Shown: piece by piece, positions 23,583 to 48,065 of the stretch
How the letters are laid out: each line of letters begins with the position of its first letter
Position numbering within the stretch: the stretch's first letter is position 1
NCBI GenBank assembly: GCA_903904195.1
Contig: CAIVBM010000033.1
Coordinates: forward strand, 1 to 48,489
DNA length: 48,489 nt
Source of the DNA: an uncultured bacterium
GTDB taxonomy: Bacteria > Patescibacteriota > Minisyncoccia > Phycocordibacterales > UBA9973
Direction: 5' to 3'
Translations under genes and position numbers: made by a program
The notes under the pieces: model-generated
Told to the model about the DNA's origin: nothing
The model's database searches: none
Seen by the model: only the letters and a program-made list of their open reading frames with translations

Positions 23583-23610
23583 CCACTTTTGGACGGCCGT
23601 CTAGAATTGG
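23583..23610 (+). repeat. Palindromic repeat copy 1 (CCACTTTTGGACGGCCGTCTAGAATTGG + GTTTTATTT)
   Basis: Shares the TTTGGACGGCCGTCTA core and G/T-tract tail with the copy at 24118-24145. It abuts the stop of 23614-24123. Confidence 0.6.
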
Positions 23611-23613
23611 GTT

Positions 23614-24123
23614 TTATTTCTGCGCTTTTATACTTTCAATCTTAAATATCCTCACACACTTGCCAACACCGAGCAAATCAAGCCGAGCAATAAATTCTTT
23701 CGGCAAGGGACCTTTCCCCAGCCAAACGCTTTGCTGCAACATTTCAAAATCCCATAATTTTAAATGCAAGCGAAGCCAATTTCTGGTTTTCCTTTTCTTT
23801 TCCGGTATATCAAACAAAACCATAACTTTTGTATTCCCTATCGGCTTTACTAGTATTTTCGCAAATAGAGTTTGTCGTCTTAGAATATTTTTATTTAAGA
23901 TAACACCTTTTTCAGAATCAAAATCTAATATTCCCTTCTTTTTGAGTCTGTATAAATTTTTATTAAACAATTCATTACTAAGTATTCGTCTCTTCTGCAC
24001 TAATTCATAAAGCACTCTTCTTTGAATTCTGAGCGAATAACAAGACAGTAATTGACTGATAATAAGATCGCTAAAAGAAGCCTCATCTTTCCAATGTTTT
24101 TGCATCTGCATAGTATACCACAT
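23614..24123 (-). CDS. wHTH plus Cas2-fold (PaaX-like) domain protein
   Basis: The C-terminal half, KVMVLFDIPEKKRKTRNWLRLHLKLWDFEMLQQSVWLGKG, follows the Cas2/PaaX ferredoxin-fold pattern (beta-strand, DI, basic helix, QxSVW). The N-terminal half resembles a winged helix (YELVQK...LYRLKKKGIL). Confidence 0.5.
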   Translation of the reverse strand: MWYTMQMQKHWKDEASFSDLIISQLLSCYSLRIQRRVLYELVQKRRILSNELFNKNLYRLKKKGILDFDSEKGVILNKNILRRQTLFAKILVKPIGNTKVMVLFDIPEKKRKTRNWLRLHLKLWDFEMLQQSVWLGKGPLPKEFIARLDLLGVGKCVRIFKIESIKAQK

Positions 24124-24145
24124 TTGGACGGCCGTCTAAATGTGG
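24118..24145 (+). repeat. Palindromic repeat copy 2 (CCACATTTGGACGGCCGTCTAAATGTGG + GTTTTTTTTA)
   Basis: 28-nt near-perfect palindrome whose only two deviations are G-T wobble positions. It contains the ATG (24123) of the Cas2-fold gene in its stem. Confidence 0.6.
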
Positions 24146-33214: not shown

Positions 33215-33243
33215 ATTATACCCCCAGTGGTGGCTCCTGTCAA
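33215..33243 (-). promoter_or_regulatory. Perfect consensus promoter TTGACA-17-TATAAT driving island C
   Basis: Reverse complement of 33238-33243 is TTGACA, which overlaps the tsaC stop codon. Reverse complement of 33215-33220 is TATAAT. The spacer is exactly 17 nt. Confidence 0.65.
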
Positions 33244-33815
33244 TCTCTTAAAACTTCAACTGAACCGTCTTTTTTTAGCCTAATTACTTTAGAAGCTTTG
33301 CCTTTTATCTCTCCCCCATCAACATATAAATCAACAGAATCTCCAAAATACTTTTTCGCTTCAATAATATTTAGCGCCGGAGGCAAACCTTCAAGGTTTG
33401 CCGACGGCGCTACGAGCGGACCTGTTTCTTTCAATAAATCCTGTAAACCTCCTTGCGCAGGCAAACGAAAAGCTAGCGAATTTGTATCACGATGTAAATA
33501 TCTAAATTTCTCTTCATTACAATCTAAAATAATACTTACCGGTTCTGTATTTATAGACCAATATTTTTCTAATACTAATTTTTGTTCTTTTGAAATATTT
33601 ATTGAAAATTTTCCTAAATCTTTAATGTCAGAAATTAAAATAATACATGGCTTGCTCGGCGCACGCTTTCGTATTTCATAAATCCTGTTTACTGTTTTCT
33701 CATTTTCAGCTTTTCCAACAATTCCATACAAAGTATCTGTGGGCATGACAACCACACCACCCTCTTTAAGTGTTTTATGTAGATTTTTATCATTCCATAC
33801 ATCATTTTTTTTCAT
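33240..33815 (-). CDS. tsaC: L-threonylcarbamoyladenylate synthase, TsaC/YrdC family
   Basis: VVVMPTDTLYGIVGKA, RKRAPSKPCIILI, LAFRLP and PSAN motifs of the YrdC domain. Confidence 0.85.
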   Translation of the reverse strand: MKKNDVWNDKNLHKTLKEGGVVVMPTDTLYGIVGKAENEKTVNRIYEIRKRAPSKPCIILISDIKDLGKFSINISKEQKLVLEKYWSINTEPVSIILDCNEEKFRYLHRDTNSLAFRLPAQGGLQDLLKETGPLVAPSANLEGLPPALNIIEAKKYFGDSVDLYVDGGEIKGKASKVIRLKKDGSVEVLRD

Positions 33816-34498: not shown

Positions 34499-34972
34499 TT
34501 ATTTTACAACTTCAGTTTTTTCTTCAGCTGCTACTTCTTCTGCCTCTTCTTGATTAGTTACAGAACGCATTTTACTGCGAACGTCTTTGACTGCTTTTGT
34601 ACGAATATAGTAGAGCTTTGATCTGCGAGCTTTTGACTTCTTGGTTATTTCAATTTTATCTATCATTGGAGAATATAGAGGGAAAATTCTTTCTACACCC
34701 ACACCAGAAGCTATTTTTCTGACTGTAAAAGTAGCACCCATTTCTGTGCCGTGTTTTCTAGCGAGAACGATACCTTCAAAAGCCTGCAATCTGAACTTGT
34801 TTGCCTCAGACTTTTTATCATCTTTCTTTTTCTTGTCTCCTTTTTTCTCGGTTTTTTCTTCTAAAATTTTAGACCAGACGTTTACTGTGTCTCCAGCCTT
34901 AAAATTAAGAGCCTTGCGGGCTTCCATATCTACCGGACTAAACTTTATATTGCTCACTTTATTTCCTGTCAT
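34499..34972 (-). CDS. rplS: 50S ribosomal protein L19 with a Lys-rich internal insertion
   Basis: GDTVNVWSKI, FEGIVLARKHG, TFTVRKIASGVGVERIFPLYSP and RRSKLYYIR. Confidence 0.9.
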   Translation of the reverse strand: MTGNKVSNIKFSPVDMEARKALNFKAGDTVNVWSKILEEKTEKKGDKKKKDDKKSEANKFRLQAFEGIVLARKHGTEMGATFTVRKIASGVGVERIFPLYSPMIDKIEITKKSKARRSKLYYIRTKAVKDVRSKMRSVTNQEEAEEVAAEEKTEVVK

Positions 34973-35020
34973 ATGTAGAGAAACATTACCACAATAGATT
35001 CATTTTTGCAATTTTATTCA

Positions 35021-35072
35021 CCTCACCCCTTGCTTTCCCCTCTCCTTGATAAGGAGAGGGGTTGGGGAGAGG
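35021..35072 (-). repeat. GC-rich palindromic element CCTCACCCC...CCCCTCTCCTT-gat-AAGGAGAGGGG..GGGGAGAGG (family copy 2)
   Basis: A perfect 11-bp inner stem plus an outer imperfect stem. It abuts the stop of 35073-36779. Confidence 0.5.
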
Positions 35073-36779
35073 TCAGATGAATTCCTGCTGATAGCAAGTT
35101 TCACAATAGACCGTTTCCGTTCTATCCGGAGCATATGAAGTCCTGATTGCCTTTCCACATTTCATGCAAGTTCTATCATAGAGTTTCGGCATTTGTAATT
35201 TATCAAATCGAGAATTTTCCCGACACCTTAGACATCTGGTTGGCAGAGGCATATTCATTTTTCGCAATAAATCAAACTCAATCGAAGCTATTTTATATTT
35301 TCTGTCGCAAGTAGTACAGGAAATTATTTCTTTTAAGATCGATTCATCGACTTTATTTATAGTTTCCGGTAAATCTTTTCCGGAGATGATAGCATCAGCT
35401 TGCTTTTCCACCTCATCATTCCAAGTATAACCGCCAGCCAGAGCTTCTTCTCTTGTTTTCGTAAAAAATTTACTTGCATTGGAATTATTGTAAGCAAACT
35501 TACTGAAACCGGGGAGGAAAAATTCCCCATATGGCCAAGCTCGTCCGAGTTCGTCTATGTATGGATTCTTTTTCATATCTTCTATTATTTTTTCTTTTAA
35601 TTCTTCATATTCTTTTCTAGAATACTCTTTATTTAAAATACAGTAACTTTTATGTTTCAAATTAATACAGCCAAAATCGTTTTTCGATCCAACACACCAT
35701 AAGGAATATTCAGTGTTTTCAACGCCGACAATACAATCAAGGGAAAATTTAACATTACTTACATCTTCACCAACATTCAAAGATTCATAAATAAGCTCGG
35801 CATTATTTCCCCAACCGGAATAATCCATGCAATCTTTTGCGGGTTTAAAAGTAATAAACTGACAGTATTTGCAATTTTCCGCATGCCCAGCAATATACAT
35901 TTCTTTTGAATTTTTTGATTGATAAACATATTCGCCGGTAACATTCAGATTAAAACTGTCTCCGGTATAAGAACGATACGGAAGTTTTTTCCATAATTTC
36001 TCGGCCTCTTTTTTGAACTCATCTATGCCTGAACGAGTCTCTAATTTTAATTTTTTTAATTTTTCTAAATATCCTTCGCGGGTATACTGAACATTAAAAA
36101 TTTTATAAGAAGAGTCGCGCAAATTTACGCAGCCGATACAATTCATGCACCCATAACAATTGCGAGAAAACCATACGTCACTACAGGAATCGCACTCTTC
36201 CGAATAAAAAGTTCGATAACAACCCCTTCTTAATCCGATTGATTCATAACATAATTCGGAACTGAAAATTCTTAAAGAATCAGCAGTATCTTTGGCCTGA
36301 TTGAGAATAGAAGAATGATAAACATTTTCGCAATAATCCGCCCATATTGCCAGAGTGCAATTTTTTGAATAAGAAATGGCGTTACTATAATCACAATTTT
36401 TTAAATTTAAATAAGTACTTTCGATAGCAGGATAAGGAGTTTTTTCAGATAACTCTTTCCATTGCGTCAAAAAAGGTCGGCTTGCGTCGTAGTCCATAGC
36501 ATATTCTGTACCATCCCAATCATCACCCCACCAGCAAGGCTGACAATAAACCGTAATTTTCTGATGCGATGGATACATAGAAAGAGTGCGTTTTCCGCAC
36601 TTGTCGCAATTGCGATAAAAAAGTGACCAAGCGTTATAGCAAGATAGTCGCCTTATCATCCTGCATTCCGGACACCAAGTGGGTGCTGGAACATTTATTT
36701 TTTCATAAAATTTAAAATCTTCCGGCTCTATTGTGAAATCTTTTTTACAGTTTTGACAGGATTTAGTTAGAGCTTCCAT
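35073..36779 (-). CDS. Cys-rich 568-aa protein with homologous N- and C-terminal four-CxxC (double zinc-ribbon) modules flanking a Cys-rich repeat core
   Basis: The N-terminal module has CQNC..CPEC..CDKC..CQPC and the C-terminal module has CTTC..CLRC..CMKC..CETC. Both share the motifs (P.P..C..CR, LY.R.C..CGK, VYC..C). The central part has NC/GC-rich short repeats. Confidence 0.8.
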   Translation of the reverse strand: MEALTKSCQNCKKDFTIEPEDFKFYEKINVPAPTWCPECRMIRRLSCYNAWSLFYRNCDKCGKRTLSMYPSHQKITVYCQPCWWGDDWDGTEYAMDYDASRPFLTQWKELSEKTPYPAIESTYLNLKNCDYSNAISYSKNCTLAIWADYCENVYHSSILNQAKDTADSLRIFSSELCYESIGLRRGCYRTFYSEECDSCSDVWFSRNCYGCMNCIGCVNLRDSSYKIFNVQYTREGYLEKLKKLKLETRSGIDEFKKEAEKLWKKLPYRSYTGDSFNLNVTGEYVYQSKNSKEMYIAGHAENCKYCQFITFKPAKDCMDYSGWGNNAELIYESLNVGEDVSNVKFSLDCIVGVENTEYSLWCVGSKNDFGCINLKHKSYCILNKEYSRKEYEELKEKIIEDMKKNPYIDELGRAWPYGEFFLPGFSKFAYNNSNASKFFTKTREEALAGGYTWNDEVEKQADAIISGKDLPETINKVDESILKEIISCTTCDRKYKIASIEFDLLRKMNMPLPTRCLRCRENSRFDKLQMPKLYDRTCMKCGKAIRTSYAPDRTETVYCETCYQQEFI

Positions 36780-36783
36780 AATT

Positions 36784-37566
36784 TTATTTTACTATATTTT
36801 TGAATTCTTTTGGAATTGGTGATTCTATTTTTATAGCTTTACCCTTTAAATCTCTAAATTCTATTGAGTTTGCATGCAATGCCATACGAGACAACCCTTT
36901 TGGACAAGCACCATTTGGATTATAAAGAGAATCACAAATCACAGGATGATTTAAGAATTTCATATGCACGCGGATCTGGTGAGTCCGGCCGGTTTTAGGA
37001 CTGATTTCTATAAAAGTAAATTTTCTAAGCGAAGGCTTGTGAAAATTTTTATCTCCGAGGGTCCCACCGCGTACTCGCGGAAGGGCGCAGGAGGAAAAAT
37101 TTTCACAAGCCGAAGCGTTAAATCTTTTTAAAACTTTATATTGAGTTATGGCTTCACGAATTTCCCCCCGCACACCACGACCCGCTAAATATCTGCGGAA
37201 ATCTTTTGGACTTCGTCCAATGGGTTTATTTATTACTCCCCTATCAAATTTTACCCAACCATCCACAAGGGCGACATATACCTTTTTCATTTCCCTATTT
37301 TGAAATAGGCTTTTTAAAAATTCATATGATTTTTGGTTTTTTGCCAAAAGTAATACTCCAGAAGTATCACGATCTAATCTGTGTACGATGCCAGGTCGCA
37401 GTATTTCCCCCATCGGCTCACCGACATTTTTCATCTTTGGATAATTTTTTAATATCCAATCAGTAATAGTCTTTTCTTTACTCCTTCCATCTCCATGCAC
37501 CGAAATACCTGAAGGCTTTTCTATGGCTAAGATATCTTTATCTTCATATAATATTTTTATTTTCAT
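36784..37566 (-). CDS. rluD: RluA-family 23S rRNA/tRNA pseudouridine synthase (RluD-like) carrying a 27-codon in-frame insertion
   Basis: HRLDRDTSGVLLLAKN catalytic Asp motif and KTGRTHQIRVH. Confidence 0.85.
   Translation of the reverse strand: MKIKILYEDKDILAIEKPSGISVHGDGRSKEKTITDWILKNYPKMKNVGEPMGEILRPGIVHRLDRDTSGVLLLAKNQKSYEFLKSLFQNREMKKVYVALVDGWVKFDRGVINKPIGRSPKDFRRYLAGRGVRGEIREAITQYKVLKRFNASACENFSSCALPRVRGGTLGDKNFHKPSLRKFTFIEISPKTGRTHQIRVHMKFLNHPVICDSLYNPNGACPKGLSRMALHANSIEFRDLKGKAIKIESPIPKEFKNIVK
37035..37110. mobile_element. 76-bp MITE-like element with 16-bp perfect terminal inverted repeats and a 5-bp direct duplication, inside rluD
   Basis: The TIR is GCTTGTGAAAATTTTT (37035-37050) paired with AAAAATTTTCACAAGC (37095-37110). 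CGAAG flanks both sides at 37030-37034 and 37111-37115. The core is GC-rich and contains CCGCGTACTCGCGG. Confidence 0.65.
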
Positions 37567-37757: not shown

Positions 37758-38072
37758 TTATAGCGATGGGTCAATGAAGGGCGCAGGAGAAATTAATATC
37801 TGATTTGATTTTTGTTTTCTAATAGAAAAATAATCAAACGCTTTTCCGATCTTGTCTTTGTTTACTGTTTCAAACTGTCCACTAGTACTATTTGATTCTA
37901 AAACAGGATCTTTGTTTATATTTACAAAAAGATAGTAACCATAAAAAATAGAAAAAATTACCACCAAAAACATAATGGGAACAGCTAATTTCCAATAAAA
38001 ATTTATGCTCATCCACAAGCTTTCCTTTTCTTTCTTAAACACTTTTTCTTTTTTAAAAAATTTTATTTCCAT
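37758..38072 (-). CDS. Hypothetical single-TM protein at the end of the pilMNO cluster
   Basis: ORF track. TM segment is WKLAVPIMFLVVIFSIFYGYYLF. Same strand as pilO and immediately downstream of it. Confidence 0.5.
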   Translation of the reverse strand: MEIKFFKKEKVFKKEKESLWMSINFYWKLAVPIMFLVVIFSIFYGYYLFVNINKDPVLESNSTSGQFETVNKDKIGKAFDYFSIRKQKSNQILISPAPFIDPSL

Positions 38073-41758: not shown

Positions 41759-42439
41759 ATGAATCTATCAGAAAGAAATTATAAATATCTCGGTACATTG
41801 AGTGTTTTCTTTGTCTCAATATTACTCATATCAAATGTCGCTTCTACAAAAATAGTAGATTTCGGGCAGTTTACTTTTGACGGAGGAACTCTACTCTTCC
41901 CCCTCAGTTACATATTTGGAGATATTCTCACTGAAGTCTATGGTTACAAAAAAACTCGCGATGTAATATGGCTCGGATTCTTTTCCGCATTAATGATGTC
42001 TATTATTTTCATCATTGTCGGTAAACTTCCTGCTGCTGCTGGTTGGAATAATCAAGCAGCATATGACGCCATCCTCGGCCTCACTCCCCGAATCGTAATA
42101 GCGAGCCTTATCGCATATGCTTGTGGAAATTTTTCAAATTCATTTGTCCTAGCAAAAATGAAACTTTGGACTGGTGGAAAATATTTATGGACACGAACTA
42201 TCGGCTCTACTGTGGTCGGGGAGCTCATTGATAGTACTCTTTTTATCTTAATTGCTTTCCTTTATATATTCCCCTCTTCCTTACTTTTCAAACTTATAAT
42301 TTCAAATTACATTTTTAAAACTCTAGTAGAAGTAGTATTCACTCCGATCACTTACAAAGTAGTTAATTTCTTAAAAAAGAACGAACTTGAAGACTATTAC
42401 GACAAAGACACAAACTTCAACCCGTTTACCACTAAATAG
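41759..42439 (+). CDS. yhhQ: YhhQ/VUT-family (DUF165) transporter, paralog 2
   Basis: LLFPLSYIFGDILTEVYGYKKTRDVIWLGF signature in a polytopic membrane protein. Confidence 0.75.
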   Translation: MNLSERNYKYLGTLSVFFVSILLISNVASTKIVDFGQFTFDGGTLLFPLSYIFGDILTEVYGYKKTRDVIWLGFFSALMMSIIFIIVGKLPAAAGWNNQAAYDAILGLTPRIVIASLIAYACGNFSNSFVLAKMKLWTGGKYLWTRTIGSTVVGELIDSTLFILIAFLYIFPSSLLFKLIISNYIFKTLVEVVFTPITYKVVNFLKKNELEDYYDKDTNFNPFTTK

Positions 42440-46422: not shown

Positions 46423-47286
46423 TTAGATGCCAAATACTCTTTTAGCATTTTTGATGATAGTTTCAGCAACTTCTTTTTCGGATATATTTTTTATCTCAGC
46501 AATTTTCTTTACAACTTCTTTTACATAAGAAGGCTCATTTCTTCGTCCTCTATGTGGAACAGGAGCCACATATGGAGAATCCGTCTCAGACATAATCCGA
46601 TCAAGCGGGATATTTTTTATAACTTCATCATAATCATGCGTAAAAGTTATAACTCCAGTAAAAGAAAGAGTAAAACCTAAATCAAGAAAACTCTTTGCTT
46701 CACTCCAAGTTCCAGAAAAGAAATGAACATTACCACGGACTTTTGGATATTTTCTCAAAAGATAAAGCGCATCTACATATGCATTTGGAGTCCCCTCTTT
46801 GCCTTCTATTAATTCTTTCTTTTCATTATTACGCAAATGAATCATTAAAAGTTTATCAAATTCGCAAGCAAGCTCTATTTGTTCCACAAAAGCTTTTTTT
46901 TGTTTTGATATTGATTCTTGTGTACATCTGTAATAATCAAGCCCACATTCCCCTATCCCAACGACTTTTTTATTTTCCAAAAGTTTCCTATATGATTCTT
47001 TATTAAAAATTTCTCCACGTGAAGAAAATTCTTTATTTCCTGTACCGAGTTCTTCTTCATCGTGATGTGAAGCTCCAGTATGTATAGGGTGCAATCCTAT
47101 AACTGCGTAAACACCTTCTTCATACTTATCTGCCAAATCAACTGCATCTTTTGAAGTATCTATTTGAGTGCCAACGTTTATCATCCAAGTATCATTGTCT
47201 AATGCACGACGAACAACCTCGTCCCTGTCCGCATCAAAGGCTTTAAAATTAACGTGACTATGTATATCTATGTATTTTGGTTTCAT
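46423..47286 (-). CDS. tatD: TatD-family metal-dependent hydrolase/DNase
   Basis: YIDIHSHVNF, GECGLDYY, MIHLR, HFFSG and SETDSPYV motifs. Start set to the ATG at 47286, 7 nt after TATACT (47294-47299). Confidence 0.85.
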   Translation of the reverse strand: MKPKYIDIHSHVNFKAFDADRDEVVRRALDNDTWMINVGTQIDTSKDAVDLADKYEEGVYAVIGLHPIHTGASHHDEEELGTGNKEFSSRGEIFNKESYRKLLENKKVVGIGECGLDYYRCTQESISKQKKAFVEQIELACEFDKLLMIHLRNNEKKELIEGKEGTPNAYVDALYLLRKYPKVRGNVHFFSGTWSEAKSFLDLGFTLSFTGVITFTHDYDEVIKNIPLDRIMSETDSPYVAPVPHRGRRNEPSYVKEVVKKIAEIKNISEKEVAETIIKNAKRVFGI

Positions 47287-47309
47287 AAGTATTAGTATAT
47301 AACGAAATT

Positions 47310-47339
47310 GAGGGCGTTCGCACATGCGCGAACGCCCTC
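47310..47339 (-). terminator. GC hairpin GAGGGCGTTCGC-acatgc-GCGAACGCCCTC (12-bp perfect stem)
   Basis: Read directly. It lies between the stop of 47358-48065 and the tatD -10 box. Confidence 0.6.
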
Positions 47340-47357
47340 CCCCTACGATCGACACAT

Positions 47358-48065
47358 TCAACAATCAAACCGCTCATCCCCCCACCCTGATTCCGGTTCT
47401 TCAATGGCCATTTCGTCTGACATATCTCTGGCAATCTCGAAATGCTCCTTGTCGTCACCCCAAAAGGCAAGGCTGAGCTCGATTGACTGCTTCAGAGTAT
47501 CATCATACATGGAATGCCAAGCCCTGTAATTCCTGAGTGCACACTCTAGCTCATTCACGTTCCTTGTCCTTTGAAGGCGAACGGTGTCCAGATGGTCTTC
47601 GGAGATCATGACCTTTTTAGCCAGTATAGCTAGCCCGTTACGAACCTTGTCATGGGCTTGCGAAAGATCTAGCTTATTCTGATTGCCCTTAACTAATGCC
47701 CTATAGAAGAAGCCGGACCCGAACTGCTTGGCCACAAGATCAAGAGACGCACGTATTTTCACACACTTGTCGCTCACGTAAGCAGCGATGACAAACCAAC
47801 CCCACAACACGCAAATAAATGCGATTAGTATCACGAATCTCTTGTCGCCGATGCCGGCGAAACCCGCAATGCCAAGAAAGCTGGACACCAGAAACAGAAC
47901 CATGCATACGACGAACATCACACGCATGGCTCTCTCAATCTTCCGATACAGCTTCCACTTGTCGCACTGACATTTCAAAGGACCATACTTCCCATACAAG
48001 ATAAGTAAGACTTCATCTGGAAGACAGTTCACCAACCTCATCAGGAATTCTATCGTTTCGTTCAT
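47358..48065 (-). CDS. Island D 2-TM membrane protein with a ~130-aa acidic helical C-terminal domain, unknown function
   Basis: ORF track, trimmed to the first ATG (MNETIEF...). TM segments are VMFVVCMVLFLVSSFLGIAGFAGI and FVILIAFICVLWGWFVIAAYV. GC-rich. Confidence 0.55.
   Translation of the reverse strand: MNETIEFLMRLVNCLPDEVLLILYGKYGPLKCQCDKWKLYRKIERAMRVMFVVCMVLFLVSSFLGIAGFAGIGDKRFVILIAFICVLWGWFVIAAYVSDKCVKIRASLDLVAKQFGSGFFYRALVKGNQNKLDLSQAHDKVRNGLAILAKKVMISEDHLDTVRLQRTRNVNELECALRNYRAWHSMYDDTLKQSIELSLAFWGDDKEHFEIARDMSDEMAIEEPESGWGDERFDC

Follow-up and report, generated by a model that had tools for sequence, protein, structure and literature searches.

How does a perfect GC-rich palindrome come to lie in frame within a pseudouridine synthase gene of an AT-rich bacterium, and what becomes of the enzyme? 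The question is raised by contig CAIVBM010000033.1 of GenBank assembly GCA_903904195.1, from an uncultured patescibacterium (GTDB lineage Patescibacteriota; Minisyncoccia; Phycocordibacterales; UBA9973), of which the whole 48,489-nucleotide stretch, hereafter the window (~36% G+C), was analyzed. An initial annotation made from the letters alone had described the palindrome as a recently transposed element resembling a MITE (miniature inverted-repeat transposable element), flanked by a 5-bp target-site duplication, that was either tolerated or had disabled the enzyme. With moderate confidence, we instead assign it to a family of selfish hairpin elements of Paceibacteria-type Patescibacteria, ~78-93 nt long, which resemble the Rickettsia palindromic elements (RPEs) and would be translated and tolerated by their hosts.

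The palindrome and its host protein

The host open reading frame (ORF; minus strand, 36784..37566, 260 aa) encodes an RluA-family pseudouridine synthase whose only Pfam domain is the catalytic PseudoU_synth_2 domain (PF00849, E = 3.9e-28). Its homologues are 232-260 aa long and are named at source as RluA family or 23S rRNA pseudouridine synthase; the source names of the closest ones point to a Paceibacteria/Nomurabacteria-like patescibacterial genome for the window. The best PDB matches were the pseudouridine synthase 11wx_A and the RluD catalytic domain, with alignments to RluD structures beginning at the catalytic domain (chain residue ~83-107). The gene had been labelled rluD; the catalytic domain bears this out, while the identity with RluD does not hold, as the N-terminal S4 domain is absent, unlike in E. 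coli RluD.

On the plus strand, the window copy consists of cgaag (37030-37034), GCTTGTGAAAATTTTT (37035-37050), a 44-nt core of ~66% G+C (37051-37094), AAAAATTTTCACAAGC (37095-37110) and a second cgaag (37111-37115). The 76-bp palindromic element (37035-37110) with perfect 16-bp terminal inverted repeats and a GC-rich core was therefore present as first described, and a repeat search lengthened the arms to 17 nt (37034-37050 and 37095-37111; 100% complementary, spacing 44 nt). Read on the gene strand, 37095..37111 is the 5' arm and 37034..37050 the 3' arm, which is composed of an 8-nt variable part and an A/T tract. The asymmetric core between them (37051..37094, minus strand) reads CCTCCTGCGCCCTTC-inner hairpin-TGGGACCCTCGGAGAT and encodes SSCALPRVRGGTLGD; its inner hairpin, CCGCG-AGTA-CGCGG (37067..37080, minus strand), is variable in sequence and length across the family. 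The 81 nt of element plus pentamer hold no stop codon, and the translation agrees exactly with the peptide gain that had been predicted, reading ...RFNAS-ACENFSSCALPRVRGGTLGDKNFHKPS-LRKFTFIEISPKTGRTHQIRVH... with the insert at residues ~153-179.

These 27 residues are an insertion, as had been proposed. Orthologues with an empty site (232-235 aa) run through without them, for example P0034 (locus L004), which reads RFNAP-LKFTFLEI (DNA ...AAT GCT CCT CTT AAG TTT...), and solved homologues have a 2-3-residue turn where the insert sits. In 11wx_A, query residues 152-183 are unmatched between chain residues 155 and 157, in a tight turn between two strands. An AlphaFold model of the host synthase built with 48 orthologues (mean predicted local distance difference test (pLDDT) 84.5, predicted template modelling score (pTM) 0.82) gave residues 157-171 a pLDDT < 50 and put them at the tip of the hairpin that strands 140-157 and 179-190 make. 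The insert is thus predicted to form a surface loop at a beta-hairpin turn, itself modelled as disordered, with the remainder of the fold confident and intact, in line with the surface loop that a structural check was to look for. A native protein loop was considered and ruled out because some orthologues have an empty site, because the identical DNA turns up in other genes and between genes, and because reversed copies exist (see below). The catalytic HRLD and KTGRTHQIRVH motifs are intact in the host synthase and in dozens of insert-bearing orthologues; with the open reading frame and the retained AlphaFold fold, this speaks against the idea that the insertion disabled the enzyme, and the insert-bearing synthase probably stays functional.

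A family of hairpins with a fixed core and covarying arms

The peptide NFSSCALPRVRGGTLGDKNF occurs at the same site in many orthologues, with a second copy in a different loop of three of them (P0013, P0038, P0051). Copies of the element were retrieved at the DNA level by two exact core-pattern scans, of species-representative genomes and of metagenomes. The genome scan returned 15 loci in 14 assemblies (one assembly had two), every named one belonging to Patescibacteria, and the metagenome scan returned 51 loci, Patescibacteria wherever named. About 52 distinct copies were recovered and aligned, and the family was found only in DNA of Patescibacteria (Paceibacteria/Nomurabacteria). The expectation that other copies exist elsewhere was borne out: the element recurs at other sites, in other genes and in related Patescibacteria genomes.

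A family covariance model (R1) gave 70 full-length matches on the related loci (69-107 bits; 1-2 per locus) and detected a single intact copy in the window (E = 9.9e-25 at 108.3 bits, over model positions 1-91), which nhmmer with a family profile also recovered (E = 3.6e-25). The limits of the model match (37027..37117, minus strand) take in conserved flanks, RGCTYC and TTCGCTT, so that the extent first given is correct for the 76-bp palindrome and too short for the conserved unit, which includes both pentamers. On the gene strand, the copies share the order RGCTYC; a free 8-11-nt arm; AAAATTTTT (AAATTTTTT in a second subfamily); CCTCCTGCGCCCTTC; the inner hairpin; YGGGACCCTCGGAGAT; AAAAATTTT; the complementary arm; and TTCGCTT. 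The inner hairpin takes the form CCNNG-AGTA-CNNGG, is of short TTC(G)-loop type, or is longer. Core columns are invariant or nearly so in 46-48 copies, coding and intergenic, and the A/T tract is self-complementary. Element lengths are 78, 81, 84, 90 and 93 nt, which are steps of three, intergenic copies included.

Pairing was assessed over 48 copies by using RNAalifold and explicit pair counts. Paired cells made up 93.3% against 76.2% in column shuffles, the covariation score was 0.427 against 0.111 (0/500 shuffles as high), and slid controls reached at most 63% paired. The main helix was 95.9% paired, and the arms paired in all 48 copies. All four Watson-Crick pair types are represented at each position in the outer arm and in the inner stem, and columns 49-51/70-72 of the inner hairpin carry compensatory changes (CG, UA, GC, AU).

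Searches beyond this set were negative. An exact-pattern scan of viral contigs gave no match, nor did a blastn search of plasmids and phages with the element; Rfam 15 held no relevant family for the window region at E up to 10 and detected only tRNAs and one group I intron in six related loci; and a 42-aa tandem peptide query yielded no candidates among other host proteins. Two further matches within the window were inspected. A terminal-inverted-repeat-like match at 42119 (one mismatch) was judged to be chance, as the coding stretch around it is unremarkable and a partner arm is missing. A second stretch, TTTCTCCTGCGCCCTTC (37771..37792, minus strand), matches the left half of the core (nhmmer 11.7 bits, E = 0.004, marginal) at the C-terminal end of ORF 37758..38072, beside tRNA-Val, and was also picked up by the repeat search. 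This stretch, which model R1 did not detect, is perhaps the decayed remnant of a second copy, with reading in the other of the two open frames (ISPAPF). At another locus, a weak forward-strand covariance-model match (L070:9299-9389, 31.8 bits) lies ~2 kb upstream of the copy between ftsZ and trxB and is perhaps a divergent member.

Host sites, reading frame and orientation

In-frame copies occur in three loops of RluA-family synthases: site A (after GEP), site B (the site in the window) and site C (after DKPSGIxVH). They are also found in RecJ (directly after the DHH motif), in phosphoglycerate kinase (PGK) and in a PF10672 S-adenosylmethionine methyltransferase. Non-coding copies lie at the rplJ (uL10) 3' end, upstream of a NusB-NUDIX gene and after rplK, and spacer copies between htpX and gatC, gatC and gatA, ftsZ and trxB, rplD and rplW, and a zinc-ribbon gene and rplS. 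This recurrence of the same DNA element in further genes and sites means that it is, or once was, mobile.

The reading frame is open in every in-gene copy, which extends to the whole family the in-frame tolerance suggested for the window copy. Forward copies are all read in the same one of two open frames (...NF-SSCALPRVRGGTLGD-KNF...). Reversed copies read NF-YLRGS...EGRRRK-NF and were found at site A and site B (L018, L012), with the reversed peptide also in P0127, P0154, P0089, P0058, P0115, P0060 and P0120. The A/T tract is its own reverse complement, so an inversion in situ between the arms keeps the frame; we consider this the likeliest origin of the reversed copies. At approximately 14 of 17 independent sites, the element points the same way as host transcription. 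The forward strand of the element is the G-rich strand in 29/35 loci, a GC skew that is confounded with the coding strand.

The strand counts and folds bear on the form in which the hairpin might be selected. On the sense strand, non-Watson-Crick positions of the stems are A.C in 40 cases and G.U in 11. The sense-strand RNA fold of the window copy is stable (-43.2 kcal/mol, z = -6.3; 0/200 shuffles equal it) and that of the antisense strand more so (-52.1 kcal/mol). The antisense strand folds better as RNA in 43/46 copies, which share one core and are not independent. As DNA, the two strands of the window copy fold with z = -7.3 and -7.9. The A.C excess, the better antisense folds and the reversed copies argue against structure in the sense mRNA as the selected form, and that candidate was set aside as unsupported. 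A DNA hairpin or cruciform would fit the data, as would an antisense or a bottom-strand form.

Turnover at the synthase site

The state of site B was scored in 181 synthase orthologues collected by two protein searches, one with an empty-site query. The site was empty in 94 and held an intact forward copy in 32, a reversed copy in 4, and a decayed or unclassified insert in 44; the remaining 7 carried other GC-rich hairpin families (PSLRREG..., PSPYKGEGE, GGSASGGE). The neighbour-joining tree shows the states interspersed, with differences between sister sequences. Decayed synthase copies are still in frame, and in P0097 the arms are retained and the core is deleted. Orthologues only 65-80% identical share the insert at this site, intact or decayed (P0002, at 80%, has it). 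As diverged orthologues share it, the insertion is neither specific nor recent to this genome, contrary to the recent transposition that had been proposed.

Pairs of closely related filled and empty sites show how the state can change. In the closest pair (P0016/L074 and P0136/L075), the genes are 95-100% identical upstream of the element, 77-85% identical for ~240 nt downstream of it, and then 93-98% identical. The edge of this recombination patch coincides with the element, and some gain or loss has therefore occurred by homologous replacement rather than by clean transposition. A second pair (L071/L072) was too mosaic for its boundaries to be defined.

Among insert-bearing gene pairs (66-78% identical overall), the windows containing the element were above gene-wide identity in every pair, and the element was the single best-conserved stretch in about half of them (up to 97-100% in L005/L016), a signal that is inflated by the retrieval of copies with exact core patterns. 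Many inserts are decayed, so this conservation is not universal. It fits purifying selection on the nucleic acid as well as recent lateral spread.

Flanking motifs in place of a target-site duplication

The pentamers CGAAG at 37030..37034 (the right-hand copy of the supposed duplication) and at 37111..37115 lie, on the gene strand, within the 3' flank motif TTCGCTT and the 5' flank motif RGCTYC, respectively. Both motifs are common to copies at unrelated loci. The left and right flanks of one copy were no more similar than flanks taken from different copies (permutation p = 0.2-0.97 in six registers). In many copies (L011, L018, L022, L024, L025, L032), the flanks are inverted, not direct, and the palindrome is then 19-26 bp; in the remaining copies, RGC pairs with GCT across a symmetric TTC/TTC internal loop. 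Pairing in this outer helix reaches 73%, and each of its three pairs shows double changes. Since the flanks are family-wide rather than copy-specific, a true duplication is not demonstrated, and the 5-bp CGAAG duplication of the initial annotation dissolves into family motifs that pair as an outer helix. Empty sites already contain GCTCC (Ala-Pro); insertion thus either prefers the left motif as a target or replaces it. The close filled/empty pair described above gives no reading on duplication, as the recombination patch lies there.

Alternative explanations

If the elements are selfish and RPE-like, as we favor, arm pairing and core sequence would be needed for their own propagation. The likely substrate would be a single-stranded or cruciform DNA hairpin recognized by a protein supplied in trans; a structure-defined stem, an irregular core that does not change and short motifs conserved at the foot would suit a DNA-hairpin-recognizing enzyme of the HUH or tyrosine-recombinase type. 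Presence or absence among close relatives may also shift when element-bearing gene segments are exchanged by homologous recombination, and copies that are not renewed any more might decay or have their core deleted. Several points weigh against this reading. Copy number is very low for a selfish repeat (1-2 per locus, and one match in an 813-kb contig). No transposase gene was called within 3-10 kb around the copies, and no longer element sharing the ends was found, all 70 of 70 covariance-model matches being complete small elements. Genes that are only 65-80% identical have the same core down to its synonymous sites. Neither the bias of orientation toward transcription nor the excess of one gene among the genome matches (9/15) is explained by it, and the presumed read-through into protein is read from open frames. 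The elements could instead be functional structured RNA or single-stranded DNA under purifying selection at the host level, such as a hairpin that binds a protein and is embedded in mRNAs and operon spacers, with coding insertions as a side effect of where it is needed or tolerated. The core stays invariant, synonymous positions and intergenic copies included, while covariation is seen in the arms and inner hairpin; the element is among the best-conserved stretches of its host genes; and low copy number, the bias toward the direction of transcription, and the many ribosome- or RNA-related hosts (RluA-family synthase, PF10672 methyltransferase, uL10, NusB, ribosomal-protein spacers) agree with a host function. 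We nevertheless regard this serious rival as rather unlikely: Rfam offers no match, reversed copies at the same sites (L012, L018) mean that no single transcript strand is kept, A.C outnumbers G.U on the sense strand (40 against 11) and the opposite strand gives the better RNA fold in 43/46 copies, many orthologues keep the gene with no element or a decayed one, and the conservation is overstated by the way copies were retrieved. Tentatively, and with a similarly low probability, the hairpin could be a conserved module kept by selection or by a homing-like drive, site-specific above all for the synthase loops, spread by break-induced gene conversion or by an enzyme acting on single-stranded DNA hairpins, and read as protein.

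The remaining accounts differ in how the element would move or be expressed. A classical MITE, recently mobilized by a transposase with affinity for the terminal inverted repeats and leaving a 5-bp CTTCG duplication, would explain the perfect arms between identical pentamers in the window copy, the single CTYC-like target in the empty site of P0034 (GCTCCTCTT) and the copies at many unrelated sites. It is quite improbable given flank motifs that are family-wide, pair with each other and are inverted in many copies, an insertion common to diverged orthologues, 1-2 copies per genome, and no autonomous partner seen among neighbors within 3-10 kb of the copies; moreover, the outer arms differ between copies, even between two in one gene (L001, L023, L057), which is unexpected if a transposase reads the inverted repeats. 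The inverted repeats that prompted the MITE-like label are real, yet with no demonstrable duplication, low copy number, no parent insertion sequence seen and unconserved arms, the element is not filed as a strict MITE. The absence of a copy-specific duplication would suit an element of REP/RAYT or IS200/IS605-PATE type, mobilized as single-stranded DNA by an HUH tyrosine transposase that cuts at the flank motifs and inserts 3' of a GCTYC-like target. So would a hairpin with free stem sequence and a fixed irregular core, the short conserved motifs at both feet, the GCTCC that pre-exists in empty sites, and the orientation of the G-rich strand in 29/35 loci, the last being confounded with the coding strand. 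We consider the chances of this type slim, as no Y1/HUH gene was among the called neighbors 3-10 kb around each copy, the element is one long hairpin rather than separate left-end and right-end hairpins, and it is intragenic and low-copy, unlike REPs. Finally, the 81 nt might not be translated at all, through removal of a hairpin-type intron or through ribosome bypass between two TCG codons, for which T4 gene 60 and the mitochondrial 'byp' elements are precedents. A stable hairpin between identical CTTCG motifs and a GC-rich insert in an AT-rich genome would be expected of such a device. However, neither removal nor bypass would impose a reading frame, and in-gene copies at six independent forward and two reversed sites are all multiples of three, stop-free and in one frame, with decayed copies also remaining in frame; we therefore rejected this explanation as scarcely credible.

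Comparison with known elements

Many Rickettsia genes carry in-frame RPE insertions (Ogata et al. 2000, as summarized in PMC10969869). RPEs and the present family alike are short palindromic repeats found in frame in unrelated housekeeping genes and in non-coding DNA (PMC10969869), in small, AT-rich, reduced genomes and with no transposase known. RPEs are translated as an extra peptide compatible with the host fold, and the present family is predicted to be so from its open frames and the structure model. RPEs differ in being longer (~100-150 nt against ~80-90 nt) and more numerous (tens of copies per genome against 1-2), and neither the taxa nor the core sequence gives a sign of homology, RPEs having been compared by description. 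The invariant core, the covarying arms, the preference for three synthase loops and the occurrence in both orientations set the Patescibacteria family apart. Bacterial MITEs that fuse to ORFs (Coxiella QMITE1, PMC5896051; intragenic ERIC/BOX; Correia) are likewise small, non-coding, hairpin-forming elements with inverted-repeat ends and occasional in-frame fusions; in contrast to them, the present family is very low-copy, has outer arms that are not conserved, and comes with no demonstrable duplication or parent insertion sequence.

REP/REPIN elements with RAYT and the IS200/IS605-derived PATEs are imperfect hairpins recognized by structure, as the family would be, and share with it foot motifs, the absence of a target duplication, and a strand or orientation bias, whereas they are extragenic, abundant and dependent on an HUH transposase, and the Patescibacteria element is a single long hairpin with an inner hairpin. 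Organelles hold comparable palindromes: yeast mitochondrial GC clusters and 'byps' are GC-rich hairpins likewise inside AT-rich organelle genomes. The coding palindromes of Nematomorpha mitochondrial DNA (PMC6649704) are also GC-rich, lie in protein genes of AT-rich genomes and keep their arms perfect. The family described here differs from organelle palindromes in its bacterial host, in being discrete with an asymmetric core, and in being apparently translated rather than bypassed.

Other palindromes and neighboring genes

Synthase sites B and C carry other recurrent inserts as well (PEQARYGAGPD, PSxxLRT..., PSLRREGN...PPAKGE, PSPYKGEGE, GGSASGGE), and several hairpin families seem to share the hot-spot loops of the synthase. 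The window has a second GC-rich palindrome, CCCCTCTCCTT-ATC-AAGGAGAGGGG (35016-35082), nested in a longer imperfect repeat; it occupies the spacer that separates rplS (34499..34972) from the zinc-ribbon gene (35073..36779). It is similar to an unrelated hairpin family, the source of the PSPYKGEGE and PSLRREG inserts at synthase site B in other genomes. At L063 and L022, the zinc-ribbon/rplS spacer holds a copy of the synthase-type element.

Nearly identical palindromes (CCACWTTTGGACGGCCGTCTARAWKTGG; 23583-23610 and 24118-24145) stand on either side of ORF 23614..24123 (169 aa) and could be terminators or another repeat family. A GC-rich palindrome of 15+15 nt (GAGGGCGTTCGCACA/TGCGCGAACGCCCTC, 47310-47339) falls in the N-terminal 30 residues of a TatD-family gene (46423..47364), ahead of the Pfam domain, and may be another in-frame hairpin insertion. 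A 20-nt imperfect palindrome (33372-33412) in a Sua5/YciO/YrdC gene (33240..33815) encodes APSANLEGLPPA, which we take to be the native conserved YrdC SAN motif, and hence is probably not an insertion. On related contigs, a gene of ~225 aa with a faint LAGLIDADG_3 match is located just after rplS, two genes downstream of the synthase (L001:13183-13860, L004:4532-5206 and the P0009 locus), whether or not the locus carries the element. The group I intron match (L007:4610-4830; 57 bits, above the gathering score) lies beside tRNA genes on a related Patescibacteria contig.

Implications

Literature searches on palindromic or in-frame elements of the candidate phyla radiation (CPR), Patescibacteria or Parcubacteria, and on the core sequence or its peptide, turned up nothing relevant, and we know of no earlier account of this family. 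In-frame palindromic insertion is a rare route by which selfish DNA can reshape proteins, and it is documented mainly in Rickettsia and a few reduced genomes. The Patescibacteria family extends it to the CPR, making the phenomenon wider than it had appeared, and explains some of the odd 20-60-residue insertions and the length variation in CPR proteins, which affect annotation and alignment. Should the hairpin instead prove to be a homing-like or selected module, it would represent a new class of mobile or functional hairpin embedded in coding sequences of the CPR. The invariant core with covarying arms, the preference for one RNA-modification gene and the recombination patch are open to direct tests of mechanism, and a compact element with a covariance model offers a handle on the gain and loss of mobile hairpins in streamlined, DNA-scavenging bacteria.

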